Below, piece after piece: positions 2,523 to 61,158 of a stretch of 64,000 nt of DNA. The notes under the pieces are model-generated. The model saw nothing but the letters and a program-made list of their open reading frames with translations. It made no database searches and had not been told where the DNA came from. The stretch comes from Candidatus Kaiserbacteria bacterium (GTDB lineage: Bacteria > Patescibacteriota > Minisyncoccia > Phycocordibacterales > UBA2100). The stretch is from positions 730,274 to 794,273 of the forward strand of contig CP066682.1 in the NCBI GenBank assembly GCA_016432285.1, written 5' to 3'. How positions within the stretch are numbered: position 1 is the first letter of the stretch; every line of letters begins with the position of its first letter. The translations under genes were made by a program, and so were the position numbers.

Positions 2523-2610
2523 AATACCGAGGTTTAACCTCGGTATACAGGTTTAACCTCGGTATTCACCTGGTTGTCGCCCCTCCGCACCGAGGTTTAA
2601 CCTCGGTGCG
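2523..2610. repeat. REP cluster (family 1): three palindromic copies built on cgaggtttaacctcg
   Basis: ataccgaggtttaacctcggtat (2523-2545), caggtttaacctcggtat (2547-2564) and ccgcaccgaggtttaacctcggtgcgg (2584-2610), immediately upstream of RAYT1. Confidence 0.85.
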
Positions 2611-2628: not shown

Positions 2629-3303
2629 ATGAATCGCCAACCCATCGAGATCGGTGAGTGGTACCACTGCTACAACAGAGGCGTCGATAAAAGAAAAGTT
2701 TTTCTTGGACCAGGAGACTACGATCGTTTCTTGCTGCTCATGTATACGGCGAATGGTCATCTGCCCTCACACACCTTCCATCTTCGCGAAAAGCAACTAC
2801 AGAGATTCCTTGCGGAGGACAAGACGAAGCGCGACCAGATTGTGGAGATCGGAGCATATTCCCTGATGCCGAATCACTTCCACTTTGTGCTCAAGGAAAC
2901 ACGCGCGGGCGGCATCGCTCTGTTCATGCAAAAAGTACTGACCGGATACACCATGTTCTTCAACAAGAAAAACGAACGTACGGGGGCTTTATTTGCAGGG
3001 ACGTTCAAATCAAAGCACATCGACGATGACGATTACTTAAAGCTACTCATCCCCTACGTTCACCTCAACAGCGTCGAGCTGTTTGATCCCAAGTGGAAAA
3101 GCGGGAGAGGCAGCACCGCTGCCGTGCAGCAGCGAGTTTCGCAATACCCCTACTCGAGTTTGATGGATTTCATCGGCAAACCACGTCCCGAAAGGAAAAT
3201 CATTGGAGACGCGATTTTCGAACTGTATGACTCACTTCCGTCTGCACGCGAAATGCTTGACGACGCGAAGGAGTACTTCACGCAAACGAATACCGAGGTT
3301 TAA
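2629..3303 (+). CDS. REP-associated tyrosine transposase (RAYT, IS200/IS605 TnpA-like Y1 HuH family), copy 1
   Basis: 224 aa with a HuH motif (PNHFHFVLKE) and a C-terminal Tyr region (YPYSSLMDF), about 45% identical to the two other copies in the window. Flanked by cognate REPs, and its stop TAA lies in the centre of REP 3291-3311. Confidence 0.85.
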   Translation: MNRQPIEIGEWYHCYNRGVDKRKVFLGPGDYDRFLLLMYTANGHLPSHTFHLREKQLQRFLAEDKTKRDQIVEIGAYSLMPNHFHFVLKETRAGGIALFMQKVLTGYTMFFNKKNERTGALFAGTFKSKHIDDDDYLKLLIPYVHLNSVELFDPKWKSGRGSTAAVQQRVSQYPYSSLMDFIGKPRPERKIIGDAIFELYDSLPSAREMLDDAKEYFTQTNTEV

Positions 3304-3311
3304 CCTCGGTA
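3291..3311. repeat. REP (family 1) copy between convergent RAYT1 and rnc
   Basis: Perfect palindrome taccgaggtttaacctcggta. It contains the RAYT1 stop codon and abuts the rnc stop codon (3312-3314), so it probably acts as a bidirectional terminator hairpin. Confidence 0.85.
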
Positions 3312-28369: not shown

Positions 28370-28442
28370 AGCCGCCTCCCGGACTCGAACCGGGGACCTT
28401 CACTTTACAAAAGTGTTGCTCTACCAACTGAGCTAAGGCGGC
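28370..28442 (-). tRNA. tRNA-Thr (anticodon UGU)
   Basis: The reverse complement folds as a cloverleaf: acceptor GCCGCCU/AGGCGGC, D-arm GCUC-AGUUGGUA-GAGC, anticodon loop UUUGUAA (anticodon UGU), T-arm CCCGG-UUCGAGU-CCGGG, discriminator U. 73 nt, CCA not encoded. Confidence 0.85.
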
Positions 28443-34650: not shown

Positions 34651-34669
34651 CGGGATTTCGTAAATCCCG
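34651..34669. repeat. REP (family 2) copy upstream of RAYT2
   Basis: cgggatttcgtaaatcccg palindrome, 4 nt after the pfkB stop and 8 nt before the RAYT2 start. Confidence 0.8.
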
Positions 34670-34676
34670 ATTCCGC

Positions 34677-35330
34677 ATGGAGTTTTACCACGCACTCAAC
34701 AGGGGCGTTGAAGGCCGCAAACTCTTCCTCGACGACAGAGATCGTTTTCGATTCGTGCACGATCTGTGGGAATTCAACGACTCTGCACCTGCACCCGAAT
34801 TCTCCCGATATCGGGATTTACGAAATCCCGATACCTTGCCCGCACGTGAGCGCATCGTTGATATTCACGGTTGGTGCCTGATGAGCAATCACTACCACCT
34901 CTTACTCTCCGAGTGCCGCGAGGGAGGCCTTTCCTACTTTCTTCGAAAACTCAACGTGGGATACGCCAACTATTTTAACGAAAGATATGAAAGGCAGGGG
35001 TCCTTGTTCCAAGGACGAACGAAGAAAATCCTCATCGCGTCAGACGCACACTTTCTTCACATTCTGCACTACATACACCTCAATCCACTCGACTTCCTTC
35101 GAGCGACCCGTGATTGGCGCGCCGGGCGCATTGTTGGTCGCGGGCGAGCGATTGAGCACCTACAGAAGTATCGTTGGAGCAGCTATCTGGACTATTGCAG
35201 CCGAAAAAATTTCCCCTCCGTCGTTACAACGGAGTTGTTCGTAGATGTCTTCAAGAACTATGAAAAAGTGATTCGTTCCTACCTACAAGATATGGAGTTT
35301 GACGACGTACGTCCCCTGCTGCTTGAGTAG
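34677..35330 (+). CDS. REP-associated tyrosine transposase (RAYT), copy 2, with a REP-derived in-frame insert
   Basis: MEFYHALNRGVEGRKLF...GWCLMSNHYHLLLSE (HuH)...YRWSSYLDY (Tyr). An 11-bp-arm REP palindrome at 34807-34834 encodes residues ...RYRDLRNPDT... inside the ORF. Confidence 0.85.
   Translation: MEFYHALNRGVEGRKLFLDDRDRFRFVHDLWEFNDSAPAPEFSRYRDLRNPDTLPARERIVDIHGWCLMSNHYHLLLSECREGGLSYFLRKLNVGYANYFNERYERQGSLFQGRTKKILIASDAHFLHILHYIHLNPLDFLRATRDWRAGRIVGRGRAIEHLQKYRWSSYLDYCSRKNFPSVVTTELFVDVFKNYEKVIRSYLQDMEFDDVRPLLLE
34807..34834. repeat. REP (family 2) copy embedded in-frame within the RAYT2 coding sequence
   Basis: tatcgggatttacgaaatcccgata is a perfect palindrome with 11-bp arms and the same family as the flanking copies. 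The ORF frame stays open across it. Confidence 0.8.
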
Positions 35331-35341
35331 TTTCGGCCGGA

Positions 35342-36360
35342 TTACCGGGATTTACGAAATCCCGGTGTGGGTGATCGCCGGGCGGCCGCGCGGATCACCG
35401 CCTCTTTGATCGCGGTGTGAGACATGCCGAAGTGCTCGATAAGCTCCTGCGCCTCTCCCGACTGGCCGAAGCGATCCTGCATGCCGATAAACTCGATCGG
35501 CACCGGAGCCTCTCGCGAGAGGAGCTCGGCGATCGCGCCCCCGAAGCCCCCGTGCACCTGGTGCTCCTCCACGGTAACGACCGCACCCGCGCGCGTCGCC
35601 TCGCTAACGATCGTCTCCCGGTCGAGCGGCTTCACCGTGTGCACGTTGACCACGCTCACCTCGGTACCTTCGGCCTCCAGATCGCGCGCCGCAAGGAGCG
35701 CCTGATAGAGAAGAGAGCCTGTCGCGAAAATCGCGACCGATGGATTTTTGGATTGCCAGAAGAGCTGCGCCTTGCCGATCTGAAACGGCGTATCGGGAGT
35801 CGTCATGACAGGACTCTTTTCCCTGCCCCATCGCATGTACACGGGAGTGCCGAGCTTGGCAGCCGCGATCGTCGCCTTCCTGCCCTCCTCCGAATCGCAC
35901 GCGGAAATCACGGTAAAGCGCGGGATCGCGCGCATCATCGCGAGATCTTCGAGCGCCTGATGCGTCGCGCCGTCGGGGCCGACGGAAACGCCCGCGTGCA
36001 TGCCGCAGACGATGACCGGCACGTTGTTGATCCCGATCGTGGTGCGAATCTGCTCCCAGTTGCGGCCCGGATTGAACGCCGCGTAGGAGGTGATGAACGG
36101 AATCTTGCCGTAATTGGCCATGCCCGCCGCAACCGTCGCGAGGTTCTGCTCCGCGACGCCCACCTGCACGAAGCGCTCGGGAAATGCCTTTTCGAAATGG
36201 TGCGCCTGCGTGCTCTCCGCGAGGTCTGCCGTCAGCACGACGACGCGCTCATCGGCTTTTCCCGCTTCGACGACCCCTTTGCCAAACCCTTCGCGCGTCG
36301 AAGCCATCGCGGGCTTCTCGAAGATATTCTCGGCGAGTTTTGCGTCGGGATTGATCATAC
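35342..36360 (-). CDS. tkt: Transketolase, C-terminal subunit (pyrimidine-binding plus C-terminal domains)
   Basis: Start MINPDAKLAENIF at the ATG 36358-36360. Transketolase Pyr domain (...FPERFVQVGVAEQNLATVAAGMA...) and the C-terminal domain. The last 7 codons and the stop are REP-derived. Confidence 0.85.
35344..35366. repeat. REP (family 2) copy at the tktC 3' end
   Basis: accgggatttacgaaatcccggt. Read on the minus strand it encodes the last residues PGFRKSR, and the stop codon of the transketolase C-subunit ORF sits beside it. Confidence 0.8.
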
Positions 36361-37224
36361 GTTGTTTCCTTTTTCGAGCTCTTGTAAAAACATGGCTTTC
36401 TGCTGATCGGCGGGAAACTTGTCTGAGGGGCCCTTGCCGGGCGGCGCGCCATGCCAGCGGTAGTCGTTCTCGATAGAGGGCACGCCCTTGCCCGGAGTCG
36501 TATGGGCGAGGATCAGCGTCGGTTTTTCCTTGATCGATCTCGCCTCGTCGCATGCGGCAACAAACTGCCCCACGTTGTGGCCGTCTATGGGGATCACGTG
36601 CCAGCCGAACGCGCGGTACTTTTCATCAAGCGGCTCGAGCGGCATCACGTCTTCGGTATTGCCGTCGATCTGGATGTTGTTGCGATCCATCACCTGCACC
36701 AGATTGGTCAGCCGGTATTTGGCGGCAAACATCGCCCCTTCCCACGTGTTGCCTTCCTCTTGCTCGCCGTCGGAGGTGAGACAAAAGACGCGAAATGGTT
36801 TGCCGTCCATTCGCGCGGCAAGCGCGTAGCCCGCCGCCTGCGAGAGCCCCGAGCCAAGCGGCCCGGAAGTAGTCTCGAGCCCCGGCAACGATTCGCGCTC
36901 GGGGTGCCCCTGCAAGCGGGAGCCGAATGTGCGCAAGGTGAGGCACTCCTCCACCGGAAAGTATCCGGCGTGCGCCATGGCGGCGTACCGCACGGGCGTG
37001 ATGTGGCCGTTGGAGAGGATGAGGCGGTCGCGCTCTGCCCATGCAGGATTTTTCGGGTCGTGCTTCAGCACATGAAAATAGAGCGCCGCGAAAATATCCG
37101 CCATGCCTAAGGGGCCAGCGGTGTGCCCCGACTTAGCCGCGGCGAGCATCTCGATGATCGTCTTTCGTATCTCGAGGGCTTTTCCTTCGATCGCTTTTAT
37201 TTCGGCGTCGGTGATGGCGTTCAT
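36355..37224 (-). CDS. tkt: Transketolase, N-terminal subunit (TPP-binding domain)
   Basis: Start MNAITDAEIKAIEGKALEIRK... The TPP motif region is ...GHTAGPLGMADIFAALYFHVL...GPLGSGLSQAAG... Its stop overlaps the tktC start (ATGA). 289 aa. Confidence 0.85.
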   Translation of the reverse strand: MNAITDAEIKAIEGKALEIRKTIIEMLAAAKSGHTAGPLGMADIFAALYFHVLKHDPKNPAWAERDRLILSNGHITPVRYAAMAHAGYFPVEECLTLRTFGSRLQGHPERESLPGLETTSGPLGSGLSQAAGYALAARMDGKPFRVFCLTSDGEQEEGNTWEGAMFAAKYRLTNLVQVMDRNNIQIDGNTEDVMPLEPLDEKYRAFGWHVIPIDGHNVGQFVAACDEARSIKEKPTLILAHTTPGKGVPSIENDYRWHGAPPGKGPSDKFPADQQKAMFLQELEKGNNV

Positions 37225-37652
37225 ACGGCGACGTTGATGAGATTGAGGCCCGTTTCCTCGTCGAAGCCGCGCACGAGGGGCTGCGTAACCTCCCACATGC
37301 ACACCTCGAGCGTGAGCGCGACGACCGCTTTCCTTACATGCCCGCCGATCGTCTCGAGCGTTTCGTCGCAACGGGAGAGCACGGCGTGCACATGTGGCGA
37401 AGGCAGCTCGTTGAGCTCGGTGATGTTGCCGTCCATGCTGGAAACTTCAAACGGGCCCGCCTCCTGCCGGAATACGTACTGCCTCGTCGGAAGGTCGTAG
37501 TATCCGATCTCCACGTCTTCGACGGCGCCGATGGCCTGAAATTGCGCCCAGTGGATCTGATGCTCCTCGCAGTAGCGGCGGAGCGTCGCGATCAGCTCCT
37601 CGCCCCGCTCGAGTACGAGAAAGGTACCGTTGTGAATCTGCACGGCCTGCAT
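37221..37652 (-). CDS. DUF296 / PPC-domain protein (hypothetical)
   Basis: A 143-aa protein whose pattern GTFLVLERGEELIATLRRYCEEH...AIGAVEDVEIGYYD matches the plant-and-prokaryote-conserved (PPC/DUF296) fold. Its stop overlaps the tktN start (ATGA). Confidence 0.45.
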   Translation of the reverse strand: MQAVQIHNGTFLVLERGEELIATLRRYCEEHQIHWAQFQAIGAVEDVEIGYYDLPTRQYVFRQEAGPFEVSSMDGNITELNELPSPHVHAVLSRCDETLETIGGHVRKAVVALTLEVCMWEVTQPLVRGFDEETGLNLINVAV

Positions 37653-46840: not shown

Positions 46841-47380
46841 TCAGAATTTGAACAGAACGGTGCCGATCATCTCCGAGGGCTGGATTGTGCCCCAGACCCG
46901 GCTGTCTTCACTTTGCGCGCGGTTGTCTCCCATGAGGAAATAATCTTCAGGACCCAGCTTCATTTCAAAATCCGGGCCGTTCCCCGCCTTTTCCCCTTCT
47001 TCCCATTTCTCAATGTTCGCCCCTTTCTCCTCTGCTCCCCCTTCCTCCCATTTTCCCCCTTTTCCCCTTTCTGCTGTCACCGATCCGTTCGCAATGCGGA
47101 TCGTTTCGTTCGGCAGTCCGATTACGCGCTTGAGGATGATCGGGTGCTGCGGATTACGCGGATCGCGGAACACCACCGGCGAGCCGCGGAAAAGCCCGAT
47201 AAGCCGCGGCGAGATCTTTTCCACGAGCAGGTAATCACCTTCCTGAAAAGTCGGCTGCATAGAAATTCCCGTCACGATATACGGCCGTATCAGAAAAGGC
47301 AGGAGCAAAATCAGAGTTGCAACAACGGTCAAGACTGGATCCCTCCGAATTCCTGGGAGGTTTAGCCTTCCAATTTTCAT
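46841..47380 (-). CDS. lepB: Signal peptidase I
   Basis: SPase I boxes: GISMQPT (Ser nucleophile), KRVIGLPNETI (Lys general base box) and GDNRAQSEDSRVWG. It has an unusual Gly/Glu/Lys-rich insertion (GKGGKWEEGGAEEKGANIEKWEEGEKAG). The ATG at 47378-47380 overlaps the RAYT3 stop (ATGA), and the first about 10 codons are REP-derived. Confidence 0.8.
   Translation of the reverse strand: MKIGRLNLPGIRRDPVLTVVATLILLLPFLIRPYIVTGISMQPTFQEGDYLLVEKISPRLIGLFRGSPVVFRDPRNPQHPIILKRVIGLPNETIRIANGSVTAERGKGGKWEEGGAEEKGANIEKWEEGEKAGNGPDFEMKLGPEDYFLMGDNRAQSEDSRVWGTIQPSEMIGTVLFKF
47352..47373. repeat. REP (family 3) copy at the RAYT3/lepB junction
   Basis: cctgggaggtttagccttccaa with arms gggagg/ccttcc. It lies within the first codons of lepB. 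Confidence 0.8.
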
Positions 47381-48036
47381 ACGCCGACATCTTTGTATCG
47401 TAGCCAATAATCCACATGATCCTGAACTTCCCTAGCGCTCGATAGGTACCCGGGGAAAGCTCGCGGAGAAGTAATTACGTGACGGTTGTTGATATATTCT
47501 CCCAGGCTCGAATACTGATACTCGCTTACATGTCTCTGTAGTTTCCCAAAGTCGCGTGCTCCGAATTTCTTCCAATTTGGATCTTTCAATTTGGCTGGAT
47601 TTAGATGAATATAGGAAAATAAATATTTAGCATACGCATCACCCTCCACGTGCGAGGCCTTAAACGTCCCCTGAAAAAGCGCGCCACTTCGCTCATGTTT
47701 TTCATTGAAATACATCGTATACGCAGTCTGTAGTCTCTGCATAAATTTCGAGATACCGCCGTCGACCAGCGGTGTCAGATACAGATGAAAATGATTGGGC
47801 ATCAAACAATACGCGCCTATTGCCACTAAAGAACTGGAAGGTTTAGCCTCCCAGATCCGGCTCGAGGTTTTAGAAGAGAATAGAAAATCGATTCTTTTGT
47901 TTTCTCTATCATTGAGCAGGAAAAGGTACACCAGAAATCTTTTGTACTCCGCTGGCGACATGAACACTCGGCGTTTATCAACGCCTCTATTGTAAATGTG
48001 ATAGAACTCGCCTTCTGCAAAGGTGATGCGTCTCAT
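47377..48036 (-). CDS. REP-associated tyrosine transposase (RAYT), copy 3, with a REP-derived in-frame insert
   Basis: MRRITFAEGEFYHIYNRGVDKRRVF...GAYCLMPNHFHLYLTP (HuH)...SEYQYSSLGEY (Tyr). The internal REP at 47834-47854 encodes ...RIWEAKPSSS... Its start ATG overlaps the stop of the giant upstream ORF, and its stop overlaps the lepB ATG. Confidence 0.85.
   Translation of the reverse strand: MRRITFAEGEFYHIYNRGVDKRRVFMSPAEYKRFLVYLFLLNDRENKRIDFLFSSKTSSRIWEAKPSSSLVAIGAYCLMPNHFHLYLTPLVDGGISKFMQRLQTAYTMYFNEKHERSGALFQGTFKASHVEGDAYAKYLFSYIHLNPAKLKDPNWKKFGARDFGKLQRHVSEYQYSSLGEYINNRHVITSPRAFPGYLSSAREVQDHVDYWLRYKDVGV
47834..47854. repeat. REP (family 3) copy embedded in-frame within the RAYT3 coding sequence
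   Basis: ctggaaggtttagcctcccag. The reading frame is maintained across it. It sits in the same protein loop as the embedded REP in RAYT2. Confidence 0.8.
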
Positions 48037-51000
48037 AGAGTGGGCGGATCGCGGCGCTCACTGGAAGGTTTAGCCTTCCAACGGGAGCGGGGCGGAGCGT
48101 CTACTGGAAGGTTTAGCCTTCCAGTGGGGGGCTTCCCTCTTGGGACGGGGAGGATGAAGAAGGACATGCCGATGAGGAAGGCGATGGCTTGGACGAAAGA
48201 GGAGACGACGGAGGCGGCGGAAGCGGCGGAGTATTTGAAGGGCTGCTCGGCAAATGCCATGTACACGTACGTCCCCCCGCTCGCATTTGCACCAGCTGCC
48301 GTGTTTCGCTGCTTGAACCCATTGGCGAGAAAATCCATATCGTTGCAGGACGCGGTTTCCGCTGCGTTGGACTCCAATCCAAAACACGGACTGATCGGAT
48401 TACTCGTATCTCGCGCCGCATCGTATGTATTCCAAGAGTATCCGAGCGTGTCTGTCCGTTTGATCACTACGTACTTAGGTTTGAACCCCGTGTACACAAA
48501 CGGCCCATCGGCCGAGCCGTTGCCGGTGTAGGAGCCGAAGTCGGAGAAGCCGGAGATTTCATCAAAAAGATAGGCGACATAGTTGTTGCCGCTGGTATTC
48601 ACATCAGCATTGGTACCGAGCGAGAAGACGGATGCGGTCGGCGCGGTGTCGTTCCAGTAGGTGGCATCGTCGGCGGTCGCGGCTGTGCCGTTCATCAAGA
48701 GGTAATCGGTCTCCGGCGCTGAAGTATTGGCAGCGTGGTAGACCGCCCAGTCGTTGGTCGCGCCGCGGTCTTTTACGATCATAAATTCTGGTGCAGAAGA
48801 GAGCGAATGGCTGATTGTGCGATTGGCACCGGTGCCGGCGTACGGCACGATATCGAATCCGCTCGTCGGATCTTCCTTCCAAAGCCACGAGATGTAGTTG
48901 TTGCCGCTTGTGTTGAAGAGCGAATTTGTGCCGAGCGTGAAGCCGTTTTCCAAGAATGCGGTGAGTGCCGATGCCGAGCTCGTCTCAATCGTCGTCGCGT
49001 TTGAAGAAAGATACGGAAACGTACTGCGTAGCGAATCGAAGAGCCCGTGCGCATTCGCGCTCGTTCTGTCTTTTATCCATGTGAGCGTCGGCGTGAAGTC
49101 GAGCCCCGTCACCGAGAGCGCGGCCCCCGTCCCCGTGTACGTGAGCGCATCGAAGTAATCATCGGGCTGCGTAATCGTCGGCGTAGGAAGATTCGTGGTC
49201 GAGAGGGCTTTGAAATCCGTCGGTGGTGCGTATTGGAAGTACCCTCCTGCCGATGAGCGGTATGGAAGTACCGTTGCTGTTGATGTCGGCGAAGAAGACT
49301 GGCCGAAGTTGAAATTGTACGAATGAGTCTGCCCGCTGGTTTGGCCAGCACCCGCGCCAATGAAGAGCGGGCCAGTGAGACCAGTAAATGCCGAGTTCGT
49401 GCCCGCTGCCGGATCACCGCTCGCCTGCCACGTGCCATTTTTTGAAAACCAAATCTTTCCGTTATCCAAATCGAGCGCAACGCCAATAACGTCGTTGGTC
49501 GTAAAGGTGTCGCCATAGGCGCTGTCACTGCTGCTATTTCGCTTGTTTCCACCACCTGCGTACGTGTACGCGAGATAATTGCTCTCGAGAATACAGTTTT
49601 GAACGGATGACGCGCCGATGAGATATCCTCCGCTAACGCCCGTAGTTCCGGTCGGGACGATCTCGGCGTACCATTTGCCCGATGTGGGTCCGATGGAAGA
49701 GCGACCGAATGTATAACAAGCCGGCGACGCGGGAAAGCTGTCTATCGTTGCCGTGAGGTTTCCTTGAGCAGCCGTCAGATCACTCGACGAATTTGCCAGT
49801 ATGTTTAGAGTCGCAGACCCATTCGTCGGGGAATCCTTGACGTTGTCGGTCGCGTCGAGGTTGTTGGCCGTCCAGTCATTGTTGTTGCTACTCGTATCGT
49901 CGCCGGGGCTGGTGGAGGTGAGCGGCAGGTGGAATCCATTAGTGCCATACGTCCCCGAATATGTCTTCGGTCGCCAGTAGCCCGATGCGTCGTATTCGCC
50001 GAAGTCGGAGGGGGTGAGTGCTTGTCCGTCGATGGCGTAGAAATCCGCAAGGTAGCCGTCGTAGTAAGAGGTCCCGCTATGCTGTTTGCCGAAAGCGTGT
50101 ATGACATTGTCGAGAACGTTCACGTCCGAGTTTTGCGTCATTGATGTATAGCCGGAGCCCGACCACGTTTGTGCAACGCCATTGACCCAAAGCCGGATTC
50201 TATCCGCGGCAGTTGCCTGCGTACTGTCTACGGTAAAGACAATGTGGAGCCACGCACCTGGATCGCGAAACTTCGCGTTTGTTGTATAGCTCCAGGTCTC
50301 ATTACCTGCATAGCCATACAACGTATCGCTGGTCGTAAACCGGAGGCCGTCTGCCGAGTATGCCGACCAGTTGATAAGAAATTGCTCGGTCCCCAGATTT
50401 GCCCGCTTGACCCAAAAGCTGAACGTCGCTGTCTTGCCCGCACCCGTCCCCGCAGATGAGAACGTTTTGGTTAGACTCGCACTATCGTCATCATTGAAAC
50501 GCGTGCTCGATGCGATGGTGAGGTTGTACGCTTGCGCGGATTGCTGGAAGGGCTGTTCGGCGAATGCGGCGTAGACGTACGTGGCACCACTGGCATTGTA
50601 GTTGGCATCCGTCGCACGCGGCTTGAATCCGTTTGAGAGAAAATCCATCTGCCTACTTGATCCGTCGTCTGCGTTTGTCAGATTGGCGTAGATCATGATG
50701 TCGCGGAGATTACCGTCGCCAGCAGCGCTACGTCGGTTGTCCCAGATGTACCAGCCGTTCGTTGAGGCACTGTCGCTTCTTTTTACAAGCAAGAACGCCG
50801 GCTTGAATCCCGTATACACGAACGGCCCATCGCTTGAGCCGTTGCCGGTGTAGGAGCCAAAAGATGAGTAGCCGGTGGTAGAGGCGAAGAGGTAGGCGAC
50901 GTAGTTGTTGCCGCTTGTATTTACATCCGCGTTGGTGCCGAGCGAGAAGACGGATGCGGTCGGAGCCGTATCGTTCCAATATGTAGCGTCGTCGGCAGTT

Positions 51001-54387: not shown

Positions 54388-57300
54388 CTAGAAGTTGGTC
54401 GCGGCAGCGCCGAATACTTGCGTCGCGGAAGAAGTGGCGTAGGTAGCGATGAATGTCGCGAGGTCGCACTTATTTGCAGTCGTGGTGAGGGTTGGCGCCG
54501 TGCCGCTTTGCCAGTTGACGCTGCCCCACGTGACAGTGCGCGATCCTGTGCCGTCCTGACACACCACAAGCCGCAAGATCTGTCCGGCGACATAGTTGGA
54601 GAAGTTGATTGTGCGGTTGCCACCGAGCGTTACGCGCTGCTGGTTGCCGTCACGCCAGTTGACTGTGATCGTCGCTCCATCAGTGAGCGCGTTCTCCACC
54701 GTCGTGATGGCGCCTCCGGCACCCACGGTGAATTTCGCCCACGGACTTGAGGTGCCCACACCGAGCTTGCCGTCGCTCGTGAAGACGAGGAGCGACTGAT
54801 TCGTCGTCGAAGCGATTTGCAAGAAGTTGCTTGTATCGTCGCTCGTCTCGATCGTGAGTTTGTATGCGGGCGTAGATGTGCCGATGCCGATTTTATTTTC
54901 CGCGACAATATTTCCGGTGCCAGTGGGATTGCCCGAAGGGCACGAGCCGCCGGTGCAAGACCAGAGATTATCGTCGTTGAGGAAGATGTCGTTGCCCGAC
55001 GGATCGATCGTTAGATCACCCGAAGCGTCGGTGAGGAATTGCGTGTAGCGTCCGGCATCGTACGCGAGTGCGAGTTGGGCGGTAGAGACCGCATCGGCGA
55101 CCGAAAGCTTGCGGAAAGGCGTCGTCGTGCCGACACCGAGGTACCCGGCGCTCGAAAGGCGCATCGCCTCGGTGAGCGAGCCCGACTGGAGCGTTGAGAA
55201 GACGAGATCCCCTTGGCCAGCTCCATAGTTCTGCTGGAGGATCGACGCGATTGCGGCCGTCGAAGTGCTGTTGCCGAGCACGTCGAGCGCTCGGAAGGTG
55301 AGGCGCGAAGCGCTCGAGGTGGCGCTCGCGAGATTCGAGAGGAAGAGGTTGTCGAAGGTGGAACCGCTCGAAGCGCCTGCAATCTCCATCTTAGCTGACG
55401 GAGTCGTGGTGCCGACACCGAAGTTGCCAGACGTCGTAAGGAAGATTGTAGAAGTTGCAGTAAGACTTGTTCCTGCTGCTTGGTAGAACGGAAGTTGTCC
55501 TTGCGTGCCGCTTCCGACGCTCCCGCCGAGACACGATCCGTTGACCGAAAAGCAGCCATCGTTGAGGTTGATGCCGTTCGCGGCAGTGGAGGTGGCACTG
55601 CCTGTCAGATTGAAAGCGGTCATTTGCAGGGCTCCGTACACTGTTGAGGTTCCACTATTTATAAAGTTGGCCACGTTGCCGATTGAAAAGACTGACGCGG
55701 GCGAGGAGGTACCGATCCCCACGAGCCCGTTGGCGTCGATAGCGAAGACGCTGGACGTAGCAAAACCCGAAGTGGAGGAAGAGATCGCAAAGAGCGGTGC
55801 CGTACCTCCCGCAGCGCCCGCGACCGAGAGCCGGGCAAAGGGCGAAGTGGTGCCCACACCGAAGCCCGTCGATGTCCAGCGCGTCAGCTCCGAGCCGCCG
55901 ACGATCGCGTTGATGTTGCCGGAGACGCCGGCCGCAAAACCGGTCGTGGAATCGCCGCGGCTGACGATGATATTTGGAGTCGTTTGTGTAACTCCGCTTG
56001 CATTCAAGAGCGAGAAACCCGCGGAGTTTGTCGAGCTCAAGGTGCCGCCGGTCGTGATCGCGCTTCCCACAGTGAGTCGAGCCGTACCTGCGGAGGAAAT
56101 AACGACCGAGCCACTGCTGTTGTAAATTCCCGAGTTTGAGTTGTTGGTAAAGGCGAGTGCGGGCGAGGATGCCGAGCCATCAGCGAGATAGCCGACGCCA
56201 GCGATCGAAAGCGCGGTGGTGGAAGCGTACGGGAACGTGTTGGCGGAGGTGGAGGTGACGGTAATCGCGCCGGTGGTGTCGATGGTCGTCGTTGCAGTGG
56301 CGCCGAAATACGCAGGGCCGTACGAAGAGAAGAGTGTCGTGGAAGCGCGCGGCAGTGTGGTGAGGCCGCTTACCGTGAGCGTTCCCGCACCCGAAATATT
56401 ACCCGCAGTGTCGATTGTGGTTGTGGCGGTCGAACCGAAGTAGGCGGGACCGTAGGCGGAGAGAAGAGTCGTCGAGGCGCGCGGCAGTGTGGTGAGGCCG
56501 CTCACCGTGAGCGATGAGAGCACCGTGGCACCCGCGTCGAGCGTATCGGCACCGATGTTGATCGCTCCGAAACCGGTGGTGATCTGACCGCTGTCGAGCG
56601 CTCCGACCGAAGTGAGCGACGAGCCGACTACGCTTGACCCGAGCGTCGTGCCGTTTAGCGCGAGCGCGTTGTTGATGAGGAACGCGCCGCCCGAAGCGAG
56701 GTTGAGGTTGCCGCCAGTGAGCGTGATGCCGCCCGAGAAAGTAGAGGTGGCGCTGTTGCCCACGATCGAGGTGGTGGCTGTACCGCCGATACTCAAGGTG
56801 CCGTAGCTTGTTGCGGACGAGAAGGTACTGGCACCCGCGGTGAGAGCACTGGATCCGATGTTGATGGAACTAAATCCGGAGCCGATGGACCCGGCGGTGA
56901 GTGCGCCGACTGTCGTGATCGAGGTCTGACCAACGTACGTAGAAGAAATATCGATCGCGTCGGCCGTCACCGAAATCCTGTTGGCCGTTCCCACCGCATT
57001 CACCGTATTACCGCTTTTGGTGAGACCATCGCCCGCGGTGATCTCGGATGATCCCGAGAATTGAGTGAATGAGAGCGAGGTGCTGTCGAGCGTGATGGTG
57101 GCCGGAGTAATCAGGGACCAGCCGGTGTTGGCGTATGCGGTTCCCTCAGTTACGAACGTGTACATCCCGGTAATCACTTCCGAATTCTCATTGGCGTCTG
57201 ACGAGCGCGACCACGCGCCAGCCGCGACTACATAGATGCCGTTGGCGCTCGCCGTACTCTGCCCCATCACCAACACGCGATCGCCCGCGATCGCCGAGAC

Positions 57301-60300
57301 GCCATCGATCGTCTGCGTGCCGGAGAGCGTGATATTGGAAGTGGTCGCGAGGCGCACCGATGCTCTCACCGAAAGCCCCTGCGCGATCGCGTCGACGTAC
57401 GCCTTCGTCGCTGCTTCTTGTGCGGAAGTCGGATCCGCAAGACCGGTGATCTTCTTGCCTCCGAATGCCACATCACCCGAAAACGTGGTGGTCGCCGCCG
57501 AGAGTGTGCCCGTAACCGACACATTGCCCGTGAAAGATCCCGTGCCATTGATGGTGAGATTGCCGGACCCGGTGATTGCGGAGCCGACGATCGAAGAGAA
57601 GGTCGCGGCACCGCCGGTGATCGGCGACGAGCCGATGTCGATAGCGCCAAAACCGCTGCCGAGCGCTCCGGATGTGAGCGTGCCGACCGTCGTGATCGAC
57701 GTTTGTCCGACGTAGCTCGAGGAGATATCGACGCTGTCAGCGTTGACCGTGATGCGGTTGCTCGTCCCGACCACGTCGAGCGTGTTGCCAGATTTAGTGA
57801 GCCCACTGCCAGCCGTGATCTGCCCCGCACCGGAGAACTGCGTGAATGCGAGGAGCGAGGTACCAAGCGTAATCGGATCCGCCGTTGTGAGCACCCAGCC
57901 CGAGTTCGCGTTGATCGTGCCTTCAGAAATGAACGTGAAGAGTCCGGAGCCGACCTCCGCGTTCGTGTCCGCGTCTTCCGAGCGGGTCCACACACCGGCA
58001 GACACCGCATACAGACCGTTCTTCGTTTGGTCGGTCTGATTTTTCACAAGCACGCGATCACCCGCCACGAGCGACACGCCGTCGACCGTCTGCTCACCGG
58101 AGAGTGTGATGTTCGCCGTGGTGGCCGCGCGCACCGAATCCTTGAGGTCAAGTCCTTGCGCCACCGAATCGACGTAGGATTTGTTGGCCGCGTCGCCGCT
58201 GTCGCTCGGCGTGGCGACGCCCGTGATCTTTTTCGTATTGAGCTGTAGCTCGCCCGAGAGAGTGGTGGTCGCGGCGGCGAGCGTGGTGCCGACCGAAAGC
58301 GAGCTAGAGAGTGTGGCGGCGCCTGTCACACCGAGCGTGCCGCCGATCGAGGCGTTGTTGGTGACAGAGAGTCCGGTGCCCGTGCCTGCAGCAGTGAGCG
58401 TGCCGTCGGCGCGGAGTGTCGAGTAAAAGCGGCTCGCGCCGGTAGCTTGGAGCGTCGAGGAGGCCGCAAATGCACTCGTCAGCCCGAGCGTGCCCGCGAT
58501 CGTCGTATTGCCTGTTGCGGGGGCGACGATGAAGCTGCTGCCGCCCACGGTGAAGTTGCCGGTCGTCACGTCGAGGCCATTCGTGGCGTCGACGTTGCCC
58601 GCAAACGTAACCTGCCCCGTGCCCGTCTGGTTGATAGGCCCAGTCGCAGAAAATGTGAGTGAGCTACCGCCCGAGATCGTAAGATCACCCGAGATGTCAG
58701 TGGCTACGTCGACATCGAGTCCGGTCGTGGGAGCAGCAGTGCCGATCCCAACGCGGCCGGAGTTTTGCTGCACGACGAATTTGCTGGTCTGTGCCGTGAT
58801 GCCGCCCGCAAAGGTCGAGGTCGCACTCGAGGAAGTCGCGACCAGATTCGCGGCGTCGAGGAAGGAGGAGAAGCGGCCGCCGCCCGTTACTTCGAAGGGA
58901 TAGCTGGGAGAAGCGGTGAGCACTCCGAGCCTTCCCGAGGAGTCGAAGGTGGATGTCGCGGAGCCGCCAAAGTATGCGCGGTCGAAGACCGAAAGCCGTG
59001 TCGTCGATGCTCCGGAGGAAAAGAGCTGCAACGCGCTCCACGAATTCGAGACGCTCGGCGACGCATAGTCGCTTCCTGCGGTGGCCACCGAAACGAGGCC
59101 GACCGAAGAGGTTTTCAAGATACCGCTTGGCGAACCGGAGACCGTAAGATTCGTCGTGCTTGCCGTGCCGAAATAGCCGGTGCCGGAAACCGAGAGCGCG
59201 GTCGACGACGCATACGGAAATACGTTGGCAAAGACCGCTGTCACGGTGATCGCGCCCGTCGTACCGATTGTGGTCGTGCCAGTCGCGCCGAAATACGAAG
59301 GGCCGTACGAGGAGAGAAGTGTTGTCGATGCGCGCGCGAATGACGCGAGGCCCGTGGCGCTCAAGGTGCCGCCCACCGAGAGGTTGCCCGATGCGTCAAG
59401 CGACGATGTCGCCGTCCCGCCGAAGTACGCCGTGCCGAAATTGGAAAAGTTCGTACTGGACGCGCCTGCGGAGAAGAGCTGGAGCGCGGTCCAGGTGTTG
59501 GCAGATGTCGTCCCAAACGCGGTGGAAAGCGTACCGGAAGTGAACACCAAACCATTGCCAACGGTCGCAGCTTGCACGCCCCCGGAGCTATTCGTCGACA
59601 GCAGCGAAGAAGGCGCGCCGGAAATAGTTAGATTGCTTGTTGAGGCAGTCGTGAAGTAGCCGCTTGTGGCGCTAAAGGCGGTCGAGCTTCCGTAGGTGAG
59701 GGTAAGCTTACCTGCCGAGTCGAACGACGATGTCGCCGTCCCGCCGAAGTACGCCGTGCCGAAATTGGAAAAGTTCGTACTGGACGCTCCCGCAGAAAAA
59801 AGCTGCAAGGCGGTCCAGGTGTTGGCATCGGAGAGCGAAGCGCCTCCACCGCCTCCCACGATGCACGTGCCGTCGACCGCAAAACAACCATCGGAAATAT
59901 CGATGCCGTTTGCAAAAGTCGTGGTTGCCGAACCTGTAACCGCAAGACGTGTTGATGTCGCGTTGCCAAATGAGACGTCGCCGGAGATGCTGAGAGAGGA
60001 CCCGGAAATTGATGCGCCGCTGATCGAACCGCCGGAGAATGTCGAGTTGGTAATGCTGACGCTCGAGAGGTTGTCGATACGCTGCGTTACCGCGATCATG
60101 TTGACCACGCCCCCCGAAGCAACGGGCGACGACGCGCTCGTGATTCCGTAGATCTGTGCAACAAGCTTGTTGTCGAGTTCGTTCAGCTTCGATTCCAAAA
60201 TCGATTCAGTGATGCCACCGACACTCACAATACGCTCCGTCTCAATCACGCGTTCGATGACCGGCTGGTTGATGATGGTTTGCGCAAGCGCCGCGCCGCC

Positions 60301-61158
60301 TTGGACTGAAGGTGTGGAAGTCGCCGATCGGGGAATCACACGCACGCGCACTCCGTCGCTCGCGATATTTTGATCCGAAGCCTTCGCAAGTGTCGTGCTC
60401 GTCGCAGGATCGTGGAAAACGAGGCGGTACATGAACGAGTCGATACGCTCGTTCCACGCGCGCGCGATACCCGAAAGAAAATCATTCATGGCGCCGCCCG
60501 GGTCGTTGGCCGCGGCAGCCAATTGCTCGCGCGCCGATTCGATCAGTGAAATGTTTGACGCAGCAGAGCGAACGGCGACGCTCGCATACTGCTGATCCAC
60601 GAAGGCGAACGTGCCCGCGGTAAAAAGGACGGCCACGAACACCGCGATCAACTTATGCACGAACTCCATCGCGGGCGTCAGCGCGTAGGCGCTCGTGAGC
60701 GGCGCGGTCGGAAGTTTCATCGCGATATCGGCGATGTGGGCAGCGTGCGCGTGCACGCTCGGAGAGCGCGCAATTTTTTCGAGCGCGGATTGCACGTGAT
60801 AGCTGCGGTAGCTCGAATCGGCGGCGAAGCGCCTGCTCGCCGCATACTGCATGTCGTACGCGGAGCTTTTTTCGCGCGAGGCCGCGCTCGTTTTGCCGCT
60901 TCCGGACCACGCGGCTCGGTACTCCTCCTTTCGCTGCCGGGCAAGATCCTGTGCGCGCTCGGCGCGTTGCTTGCTCTGATTTTTTACAAAAGTGTCGAGC
61001 GAGTCGCTTGAGACATACCAATTCGTGCCAATCCGCCGGCCCTGGACCCTGCCGTCCTTACAGAGGCGTGCGACATAGTCGCGGGTAAATCCCGCTGTGC
61101 GCGCCGCTTCCGCAGCGGAGATATATCGTGTGCCGTCAAAAAAAATTTCGTCAGTCAT
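54388..61158 (-). CDS. Giant type-II membrane protein (2256 aa): N-terminal cytoplasmic excisionase-like HTH module, one TM, then about 2050 aa of extracellular Ser/Thr/Gly/Ala-rich beta-type repeats
   Basis: N-terminus MTDEIFFDGTRYISAAEAARTAGFTRDYVARLCKDGRVQGRRIGTNWYVSSDSLDTFV, which fits the HTH_17/Xis-like pattern (EAA..G.s...v.rl...G......iG..W.v....L..f). A basic stretch, then the TM helix LIAVFVAVLFTAGTFAFV near residue 175. Several families of internal repeats follow: three near-identical ANTWTALQLFSAGASSTNFSNFGTAYFGGTATSS units; two ~190-aa units beginning KKITG(V/L)A(T/D)P...AA(N/T)K(S/A)YVD...GDRVLV...NG(L/I)Y; and TVSGLTTLPRASTTL units. Confidence 0.7.
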   Translation of the reverse strand: MTDEIFFDGTRYISAAEAARTAGFTRDYVARLCKDGRVQGRRIGTNWYVSSDSLDTFVKNQSKQRAERAQDLARQRKEEYRAAWSGSGKTSAASREKSSAYDMQYAASRRFAADSSYRSYHVQSALEKIARSPSVHAHAAHIADIAMKLPTAPLTSAYALTPAMEFVHKLIAVFVAVLFTAGTFAFVDQQYASVAVRSAASNISLIESAREQLAAAANDPGGAMNDFLSGIARAWNERIDSFMYRLVFHDPATSTTLAKASDQNIASDGVRVRVIPRSATSTPSVQGGAALAQTIINQPVIERVIETERIVSVGGITESILESKLNELDNKLVAQIYGITSASSPVASGGVVNMIAVTQRIDNLSSVSITNSTFSGGSISGASISGSSLSISGDVSFGNATSTRLAVTGSATTTFANGIDISDGCFAVDGTCIVGGGGGASLSDANTWTALQLFSAGASSTNFSNFGTAYFGGTATSSFDSAGKLTLTYGSSTAFSATSGYFTTASTSNLTISGAPSSLLSTNSSGGVQAATVGNGLVFTSGTLSTAFGTTSANTWTALQLFSAGASSTNFSNFGTAYFGGTATSSLDASGNLSVGGTLSATGLASFARASTTLLSSYGPSYFGATGTTTIGTTGAITVTAVFANVFPYASSTALSVSGTGYFGTASTTNLTVSGSPSGILKTSSVGLVSVATAGSDYASPSVSNSWSALQLFSSGASTTRLSVFDRAYFGGSATSTFDSSGRLGVLTASPSYPFEVTGGGRFSSFLDAANLVATSSSATSTFAGGITAQTSKFVVQQNSGRVGIGTAAPTTGLDVDVATDISGDLTISGGSSLTFSATGPINQTGTGQVTFAGNVDATNGLDVTTGNFTVGGSSFIVAPATGNTTIAGTLGLTSAFAASSTLQATGASRFYSTLRADGTLTAAGTGTGLSVTNNASIGGTLGVTGAATLSSSLSVGTTLAAATTTLSGELQLNTKKITGVATPSDSGDAANKSYVDSVAQGLDLKDSVRAATTANITLSGEQTVDGVSLVAGDRVLVKNQTDQTKNGLYAVSAGVWTRSEDADTNAEVGSGLFTFISEGTINANSGWVLTTADPITLGTSLLAFTQFSGAGQITAGSGLTKSGNTLDVVGTSNRITVNADSVDISSSYVGQTSITTVGTLTSGALGSGFGAIDIGSSPITGGAATFSSIVGSAITGSGNLTINGTGSFTGNVSVTGTLSAATTTFSGDVAFGGKKITGLADPTSAQEAATKAYVDAIAQGLSVRASVRLATTSNITLSGTQTIDGVSAIAGDRVLVMGQSTASANGIYVVAAGAWSRSSDANENSEVITGMYTFVTEGTAYANTGWSLITPATITLDSTSLSFTQFSGSSEITAGDGLTKSGNTVNAVGTANRISVTADAIDISSTYVGQTSITTVGALTAGSIGSGFSSINIGSSALTAGASTFSSATSYGTLSIGGTATTSIVGNSATSTFSGGITLTGGNLNLASGGAFLINNALALNGTTLGSSVVGSSLTSVGALDSGQITTGFGAINIGADTLDAGATVLSSLTVSGLTTLPRASTTLLSAYGPAYFGSTATTTIDTAGNISGAGTLTVSGLTTLPRASTTLFSSYGPAYFGATATTTIDTTGAITVTSTSANTFPYASTTALSIAGVGYLADGSASSPALAFTNNSNSGIYNSSGSVVISSAGTARLTVGSAITTGGTLSSTNSAGFSLLNASGVTQTTPNIIVSRGDSTTGFAAGVSGNINAIVGGSELTRWTSTGFGVGTTSPFARLSVAGAAGGTAPLFAISSSTSGFATSSVFAIDANGLVGIGTSSPASVFSIGNVANFINSGTSTVYGALQMTAFNLTGSATSTAANGINLNDGCFSVNGSCLGGSVGSGTQGQLPFYQAAGTSLTATSTIFLTTSGNFGVGTTTPSAKMEIAGASSGSTFDNLFLSNLASATSSASRLTFRALDVLGNSTSTAAIASILQQNYGAGQGDLVFSTLQSGSLTEAMRLSSAGYLGVGTTTPFRKLSVADAVSTAQLALAYDAGRYTQFLTDASGDLTIDPSGNDIFLNDDNLWSCTGGSCPSGNPTGTGNIVAENKIGIGTSTPAYKLTIETSDDTSNFLQIASTTNQSLLVFTSDGKLGVGTSSPWAKFTVGAGGAITTVENALTDGATITVNWRDGNQQRVTLGGNRTINFSNYVAGQILRLVVCQDGTGSRTVTWGSVNWQSGTAPTLTTTANKCDLATFIATYATSSATQVFGAAATNF

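Follow-up and report, generated by a model that had tools for sequence, protein, structure and literature searches.

How repetitive extragenic palindromes (REPs) are copied, and how they stay matched to the REP-associated tyrosine transposases (RAYTs), is an open question. It is raised in a compact form by a 64,000-nt stretch of a Candidatus Kaiserbacteria bacterium genome (contig CP066682.1 of GenBank assembly GCA_016432285.1, positions 730,274 to 794,273 of the forward strand), which we call the window. The window contains three paralogous RAYT-type genes, one of which, RAYT2 (34677-35330, plus strand, 217 aa), carries a copy of its own flanking hairpin within its coding sequence. What keeps a DNA palindrome in a place where it is also read as codons? 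The locus is a natural record in which to look for an answer, a minimal one-gene, three-site substrate in which 0.9 kb contains three hairpin copies and coding constrains one of these.

The RAYT2 hairpin in the window and in related loci

The internal palindrome of RAYT2 is perfect. It spans 25 nt (34809-34833, plus strand), consists of 11-bp arms around an ACG loop (TATCGGGATTT-ACG-AAATCCCGATA), and lies in frame with the open reading frame (ORF), with codons 34806-34835 encoding RYRDLRNPDT and the palindrome itself being translated as YRDLRNPD. As single-stranded DNA, it folds with -10 kcal/mol (z = -3.7). The initial annotation had taken it for a cognate copy, and this holds, the hairpin type (REP2, CGGGATTT-ACG-AAATCCCG) being identical to that of the hairpins flanking the gene. 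The upstream hairpin (34651-34669, plus strand), whose loop is inverted to CGT, is found 4 nt past the stop codon of a PfkB kinase gene and 8 nt ahead of the RAYT2 ATG, and fills the 29-nt spacer between the two genes. The downstream hairpin (35344-35366, plus strand), with an ACG loop, is located 14 nt past the stop codon. The 19-nt core of REP2, CGGGATTTNNNAAATCCCG, occurs exactly three times in the 64 kb (at 34651 with the loop inverted, at 34812, and at 35346), always at RAYT2, against a chance expectation of 0.01 estimated from shuffles.

As for the relatives of RAYT2, we surveyed 80 metagenome loci whose proteins are 52-69% identical to it. A strong palindrome is present at ORF nt +126 to +165 in 66 of these RAYT2-type loci, and in the remaining ones the corresponding place is occupied by a degenerate version of the hairpin that flanks the gene. 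The internal site is thus homologous in all 80 loci, down to 52% identity, and the complete three-site layout is seen in 59 of them. The closest relatives, P0002 (73% identity) and P0007 (71%), have the REP2 hairpin at the three equivalent sites and in a matching orientation pattern. In the initial annotation, relatives with the same loop residues on nonpalindromic DNA had been named as the sign of a chance resemblance; the two proteins with near-identical residues (RYRDLRNPDI in P0002 and GYRDLRNSDI in P0007) are both encoded by palindromic DNA, with one slightly decayed internal copy.

Each locus possesses its own version of the hairpin. The internal core is present in the flanks of the same locus in 63 of 66 cases, but only 207 of 4290 cross-locus pairs match (4.8%). 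The cores of the 66 loci fall into 54 distinct sequences, while the three sites are identical in 33 loci, and sequence similarity among copies ends where the palindrome ends. Together with the shuffles, this comparison of own-locus and cross-locus pairs rules out a chance resemblance of the internal hairpins. When the palindrome-bearing loci were aligned, double-sided changes were found in 11 of 13 stem pairs, with 90.5% of cells paired versus 35-48% when the partner column is slid. This shows, at the level of sequence, that the hairpin copies of a RAYT2-type locus evolve in concert. From the identity within loci combined with the diversity between them, we infer an active process of copying or overwriting between the three sites.

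Whether the DNA or the encoded peptide is maintained can be judged from close relatives, in which the loop of the hairpin flips. For example, TTACGAA, read as D-L-R, alternates with TTCGTAA, read as D-F-V (DLRNP/DFVNP), and E-I-R likewise alternates with E-I-V. In addition, two codon phases occur for the hairpin centre, phase 0 (50 loci) and phase 1 (16 loci), the latter corresponding to one clade in which the hairpin is always 35 nt from the HGW anchor. Because the loop flips and the hairpin is read in two frames, these alignments show that the conserved object is the DNA palindrome, the 8-10 residues that it encodes appearing as a tolerated passenger. If instead the loop peptide were selected, for example as a DNA-contacting loop, the palindrome would be a by-product of codons or of chance. 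The peptides are indeed rich in R, K, S, and P, and the hairpin-contacting R46 of E. coli TnpAREP, in αB, precedes the HuH strand in a topologically equivalent region (PMC3479197). However, a by-product is at odds with the chance expectation of 0.01, the peptides bear no resemblance from locus to locus even though the DNA agrees with the flanks in each, translation of the hairpin uses two frames and either loop orientation, and the structural model has low confidence in the loop. We therefore give peptide selection hardly any credence, and as a sole explanation it is refuted by the two frames, the loop flips, and the matching to own flanks.

The apex of RAYT2-type hairpins is conserved across loci (alignment A3), with an invariant G-C pair and a nearly invariant T-ACG-A, the basal stem varying freely. 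The reverse holds in E. coli, in which TnpAREP makes no contact with the 5 bp at the apex (PMC3479197).

The enzyme, its loop, and the paralogous hairpins

RAYT2 is 100% identical to P0001, a protein encoded on an 859-kb contig and annotated as "transposase [Candidatus Kaiserbacteria]." Its paralogues in the window are RAYT3 (47377-48036, minus strand, 219 aa) and RAYT1 (2629-3303, plus strand), each protein consisting of about 220 aa and pairwise identities being 29-47%. All three ORFs are intact and retain the HuH motif NH[YF]H, the Y[IV]HLNP motif, and the SS motif, both NH[YF]H and Y[IV]HLNP being invariant in the two homologue alignments (A1 and A2). The three proteins have ...FQG... and Y-x-[WY]-S-S in common. 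Scores against Pfam Y1_Tnp are marginal around the cut-off of 23 bits (23.8 for RAYT2, 20.6-35.3 for the three), and the NCBIfam equivalog REP_Tyr_transpos (NF047646) is not passed, with 36.6 bits for RAYT2 and 29.6-37.1 for the three versus a cut-off of 80. The AlphaFold2 model of RAYT2 (pLDDT 77.5) is most similar, among structures in the Protein Data Bank (PDB), to E. coli TnpAREP (4er8_A, E=1.2e-5, TM(target) 0.61), followed by the TnpA proteins of IS608 and ISDra2. PDB sequence searches with RAYT2 or its profile did not yield 4er8, which was reached by fold search alone. Motifs, Pfam, and model agree on a Y1 HuH fold with an HuH motif and a catalytic Tyr in Y---NP, as in RAYTs. Considering the motifs, the fold match to 4er8, and the sub-cut-off NCBIfam score, the three window proteins are distant relatives of RAYT (i.e., RAYT-type Y1 HuH proteins). 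Their motif set is that of the subclass 2.1 row in Table 1 of PMC6006769, as judged by motifs alone rather than by hidden Markov models. The frames had been described as open, and rightly so: pseudogenes are ruled out by the intact ORFs and catalytic motifs of the window genes and of about 160 further loci, an internal stop being found solely in L146. A second gene in L063 that looks N-terminally truncated is an artefact, cut by the locus edge.

In the RAYT2 model, β1 (residues 3-9) and αA (20-32) are followed by a coil (33-60), β2 (61-68), and the HuH motif (72-74). The hairpin-encoded peptide corresponds to residues 44-53 within the coil, a block with a pLDDT of 58; nowhere in the core is the model less confident. 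As modelled, the αA-β2 loop carrying the peptide is a permissive, disordered location. The internal copies of RAYT2 and RAYT3 are both in frame in this common loop ahead of HuH, as the initial annotation had proposed.

The RAYT3 hairpin, REP3, is GGAAGG-CTAAA-CCTTCC, with core GGAAGGCTAAACCTTCC. Its internal copy (47834-47854, minus strand; core 47836-47852) is translated as RIWEAKPSS and matches the gene's own hairpin with one mismatch, a G.T pair, which bears out its description as cognate; its fold as single-stranded DNA is weaker than that of RAYT2 (z = -1.8). Upstream, two exact copies (48063-48079 and 48106-48122, minus strand) lie within the final ~35 codons of a 1952-aa ORF. A downstream copy with one mismatch and a weak fold (47355-47371, minus strand) is found at the beginning of an S26 signal peptidase ORF. 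The expected number of chance matches to the REP3 core with up to 3 mismatches is 0.17 (shuffles), compared with the sites at 48106, 48063, 47836, and 47355.

In RAYT1, the hairpin REP1 (ACCGAGGTTTAACCTCGGT) occurs at 2526, 2545 (partial), 2589, and 3292. The upstream group (2526-2607, plus strand) consists of exact copies at 2526-2544 and 2589-2607 and a partial copy at 2545-2563, while the 3' hairpin (3292-3310, plus strand) has the RAYT1 stop codon TAA (3301-3303) as its exact palindrome centre. RAYT1 had been reported to lack an internal copy, and we found none in its ORF, where the best match to REP1 has 7 mismatches in 17 positions. The partial REP1 copy has a counterpart in RAYT2, in which a second perfect palindrome, TCCCGATATCGGGA (34803-34816), overlaps the left arm of the internal hairpin, the two forming a similar half-hairpin-plus-hairpin layout. 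Each RAYT of the window thus has a private hairpin type, which is confined to its own gene within the 64 kb.

We also retrieved 80 genome loci of the RAYT1/3 type, in which 81 genes were scored. About 22 of the 81 genes carry an internal copy, at nt +150 to +172, with hairpins of the AAGG-loop-CCTT type. The nearest relatives of RAYT1 have hairpins on their flanks only. On a crude neighbour-joining tree, the nearest relatives of RAYT3 (L064, L065, and L070) have no internal copy, and the presence of the copy is scattered across RAYT3-type genes, with at least 15 changes, which fits many in-place losses, some re-acquisition, or both. Loop length is a median of 27 aa both with the hairpin (n=21) and without it (n=61). 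Judging from these equal lengths, the hairpin takes up an existing stretch of the loop in the RAYT1/3 clade, with no net insertion, and a simple insertion is excluded there. What the initial annotation had described as an insert in two gene copies is instead a standing, family-wide feature, and in the RAYT1/3 clade the loops that bear it are no longer than those of hairpin-free genes.

These data bear on the idea that RAYT2 and RAYT3 were recently and independently invaded by their own REPs, only in-frame products having survived. The RAYT3 copy is located about 9 codons nearer to β2 than in other RAYT3-type genes, the total loop length being equal. Because of this shift and of the nearest relatives without a copy, it may represent one independent re-acquisition. 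Self-insertion would also account for the scattered presence among RAYT3-type genes and for an inverted doublet at the internal site of L087, and in-frame intragenic REPs have been reported in other systems (PMC3733652, PMC6006769). Nevertheless, the RAYT2 hairpin occupies a homologous site in every relative, the orthologues with 71-73% identity share both hairpin and orientation pattern, loops are not lengthened relative to hairpin-free genes, and there are only two frame classes, one of which is a single clade. We thus consider recent self-insertion unlikely. Of the initial proposal that each RAYT targets its own gene, with selection of in-frame products, the part that stands is a repeated overwriting of an existing site; recent self-insertion is the part that does not.

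The doublet in L087 (nt ~3125-3165, the gene being at 3001) encodes the peptide SDFVNPADLRNP and is a REPIN-like dimer within an ORF. The 3' hairpin of this locus is of a different type, and in L161 a second, different hairpin type is present beside the 3' hairpin.

The surroundings of these genes were also compared. RAYT2-type genes share a recurring neighbourhood (L25, PfkB kinase, transketolase, rpe, rpiB, and GAPDH genes) in which their slots differ, and the downstream neighbour of RAYT1 is common to L003 and L004. This pattern resembles that of vertically inherited RAYTs (PMC5581495), with local rearrangement in addition. In the window, the transketolase (35342-37371) is split over two minus-strand ORFs, 36355-37371 corresponding to the N-terminal TPP-binding part and 35342-36553 to the pyrimidine-binding and C-terminal part. 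RAYT3 is coupled through ATGA stop/start overlaps to both of its neighbours, in the upstream junction region (48033-48122) to the 1952-aa DUF7483/SPRY ORF and at the downstream junction (47377-47380) to the ORF of the S26 signal peptidase. The upstream REP3 pair follows a hydrophobic C-terminal segment of the 1952-aa ORF (tail ...TGRLNLPV...RWKAKPSS...), which the hairpins seem to have lengthened. A second giant ORF of 2256 aa (54388-61158) is found immediately upstream on the same strand. If the signal peptidase starts at ATG 47380, the downstream REP3 copy forms its codons 3-9; were translation to begin instead at a TTG near 47330, which has GGAGG ahead of it, the hairpin would be in the 5' untranslated region. 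The Pfam S26 match of this ORF starts at residue 16.

Overwriting, regulation, or recombination

The explanation that we favour, with a probability of about 0.5, is that these loci are compact, low-copy REPtron-like units in which a resident internal hairpin is homogenised with the flanking ones by overwriting, the peptide being a passenger. Each unit consists of a Y1 HuH enzyme gene bracketed by a private DNA hairpin, and in RAYT2-type genes, as well as in some of the RAYT1/3 clade, a third standing site lies in the part of the coding sequence that specifies the αA-β2 loop. The three copies would be repeatedly overwritten from each other, in either orientation. The RAYT might catalyse this through cleavage and strand transfer at the feet of hairpins in single-stranded DNA; alternatively, neighbouring palindromes might undergo short-patch conversion or template switching. 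To our knowledge, there is no transposition assay for REPs. Selection on the enzyme would act as a filter only, removing frame breaks, stops, and changes in loop length. The internal copy would therefore be an old resident of a permissive loop, kept alive by homogenisation and decaying in place where overwriting lapses, as may be the case in RAYT1, in many RAYT1/3-type genes, and in L163 and L098, which exhibit decayed internal copies. Secondarily, the hairpins at the start and stop codons may keep enzyme expression at a low level or allow the enzyme to act on the gene that encodes it.

Copies away from the genes are few. There is no distal copy of any of the three hairpin types in the window, and 194 kb of distal flanks from related loci contain six (about 1 per 32 kb), far from the high-copy dispersal of REPs. 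All of these are inverted doublets 23-105 bp apart, located, relative to the gene start, at -1197/-1174 in L082, +1802/+1890 in L086, and +1585/+1690 in L105, and they resemble REPINs.

The anatomy of the RAYT2-type unit can also be read in terms of gene regulation. The intragenic hairpin might be a selected cis-regulatory site that acts jointly with the 5' and 3' ones to throttle or autoregulate RAYT expression, through an mRNA structure slowing ribosomes or attracting RNases, or as a hairpin or cruciform bound by the RAYT. Autoregulation through an mRNA hairpin to which the transposase binds was also the second reading offered in the initial annotation. The outer hairpins are tightly placed, the nearest 5' one ending a median of 15 nt (interquartile range 12-18) ahead of the start codon and the 3' one beginning a median of 1 nt past the stop codon, with an overlap of the ORF end in 25 of 57 loci. 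As mentioned above, the 5' hairpin of RAYT2 fills the spacer behind the kinase gene. Stems have about 12 pairs at the three sites, and internal ones match the flanking ones (means of 12.5 and 12.1 paired, respectively) despite coding constraint. The orientation of the copies is non-random. In other systems, IS200 tnpA is repressed by a 5' stem-loop, and E. coli REPs no more than ~15 nt from a stop codon reportedly reduce translation, a finding credited to Liang, Rudd, and Deutscher in 2015. E. coli TnpAREP is described as severely down-regulated (PMC3479197). Since the internal copy is retained in 80/80 RAYT2-type loci and the outer hairpins sit at the start and stop codons, this is a serious rival, which we regard as possible rather than probable.

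Several observations do not sit well with regulation. At the RNA level, a signature would be an excess of G.U over A.C, yet the sense strand shows no significant excess of G.T over A.C mismatches, with 7 versus 6 at the internal site and 10 versus 4 at the upstream one. Nor is there a systematic difference in favour of internal over flanking stems in length, and hence no sign of extra selection for internal stem stability. The loop flips freely among close relatives, and all four orientation combinations of flanking versus internal copies exist. RAYT1 and most of its clade have flanking hairpins without an internal one, and some RAYT2-type loci tolerate a decayed internal copy beside perfect flanks. 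A scan of the window with Rfam detected a tRNA alone (28370-28442, minus strand), with no family at the hairpins, while a promoter/terminator scan around RAYT2 gave nothing useful and revealed no terminator-like tail.

The preference of the upstream copy for the inverted orientation relative to the internal one (36 of 55 scorable loci), at a distance of ~170-200 bp and with the start codon in between, might alternatively suggest a recombination switch, in which the 5' segment is inverted, or a segment between direct copies deleted, to toggle the gene. However, neither an inversion nor a deletion is seen in any of about 160 independent assemblies, tblastn matches are all collinear and full length, and orientation combinations differ between loci, which makes a switch very improbable. 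A further idea, which we hold to be doubtful, is that the intragenic hairpin is a working third cis-site, translation writing every hairpin change into the αA-β2 loop of the enzyme. If true, enzyme and target would be physically coupled, which could drive fast co-diversification and prevent cross-talk among three paralogous RAYT/hairpin pairs that share one small genome. Alternatively, the enzyme could feed back directly on the gene that encodes it.

Homogenisation by overwriting, which we nevertheless favour, has to contend with several points. Every relative is a metagenome-assembled genome or a metagenome assembly, and the covariation alignment was built solely from loci already showing the palindrome, which is a selection bias. 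The upstream-inverted bias (36:19 versus 14:40, Fisher p=5e-5, with no correction for phylogeny) may reflect a constraint specific to one strand, which would not be expected if the copy were purely a passenger. Activity of the RAYTs on these hairpins is predicted only, for proteins that score 30-37 versus 80 bits with NCBIfam. The retention in all 80 RAYT2-type loci could equally mean that the site is needed. Finally, short-patch conversion between repeats of 20-25 nt is inefficient in known recombination systems.

Comparison with known systems

As in IS200/IS605 elements, a Y1 HuH enzyme gene is bracketed by hairpins of the kind that such enzymes recognise on single-stranded DNA. Unlike in these elements, there are no multiple identical copies (the paralogues being 29-47% identical), the Tyr motif is Y---NP and not Y---Q, and both end hairpins have one sequence instead of a distinct left end and right end. 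We know of no internal hairpin described for IS200/IS605.

The window loci are closer to REPtrons, such as E. coli yafM with its REPs and bacterial interspersed mosaic elements (PMC2817692, PMC3479197, PMC5581495), with which they share the Y1 HuH fold, the HuH and Y---NP motifs, and 4er8 as best match. Their own palindromes are found on both flanks in 3/3 window genes and in at least 59 of 80 related loci, in varying and often inverted orientation, with a private hairpin family for each paralogue, and the genes are low or single copy in partly syntenic neighbourhoods. In contrast to REPtrons, where hundreds of copies are dispersed per genome, there are 0 in 64 kb and ~1 per 32 kb in related flanks. 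Furthermore, the hairpins have no GT[AG]G guide tetranucleotide at their foot, with no GTAG beside any window copy; RAYT2-clade hairpins have (A/T)AT...AT(A/T) feet, and those of the RAYT1/3 clade vary. The proteins fall below the NCBIfam RAYT cut-off and have the motif signature of subclass 2.1, for which a 2018 survey found no REPs (PMC6006769). RAYT-like genes with this signature do possess cognate hairpins in Patescibacteria, which belong to the candidate phyla radiation (CPR). Our literature searches for RAYTs in Patescibacteria returned nothing specific.

Short palindromes translated within functional proteins, presumably in permissive loops, are known from Rickettsia palindromic elements (RPEs) and GTAG/CGTC REPs, the latter being found in frame in many genes by Di Nocera et al. 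in 2013, who cite the RPEs (PMC3733652). Those are scattered, high-copy insertions that add residues to unrelated genes. In the present loci, by contrast, the repeat resides in the gene of its own enzyme, at a site that is homologous throughout a clade, and its sequence follows that of the flanking copies.

The nearest precedent is subclass 2.4 of the TnpAY1 family (group 4 of Bertels, with hosts in Cyanobacteria and Bacteroidetes), in which Quentin, Siguier, Chandler, and Fichant reported in 2018 cognate REPs in frame inside tnpAREP genes (PMC6006769). The initial annotation knew of no description of such an arrangement; this one precedes it. In both cases, a cognate REP is present inside and beside its own RAYT gene with the frame preserved, and in subclass 2.4 the insertion, in a peripheral loop, was judged harmless to activity. 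The two differ in the loop, which in the present loci is αA-β2, before HuH and with no gain in length, and in subclass 2.4 comes after HuH. They also differ in the REPs, which are long and GT[AG]G-tagged or of the "double foot" type in subclass 2.4, versus untagged perfect palindromes with AT feet, and in the motifs, NH[IFV]H/WQ/YIxNNP versus NH[YF]H/FQ/Y[IV]HLNP + SS. PMC6006769 describes insertions, with no mention of a homologous site that is fixed, of evolution in concert with the flanks, or of changes in loop orientation or frame, and our searches found no paper on a clade-wide homologous intragenic site, its co-variation with the flanks, flips, frame changes, or the absence of length gain. 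The arrangement as such is therefore already described, and what the present loci add to it is the clade, the CPR hosts, the pre-HuH loop, the hairpin type, and the family-wide site, in a clear case of DNA structure, and not protein, dictating part of a coding sequence.

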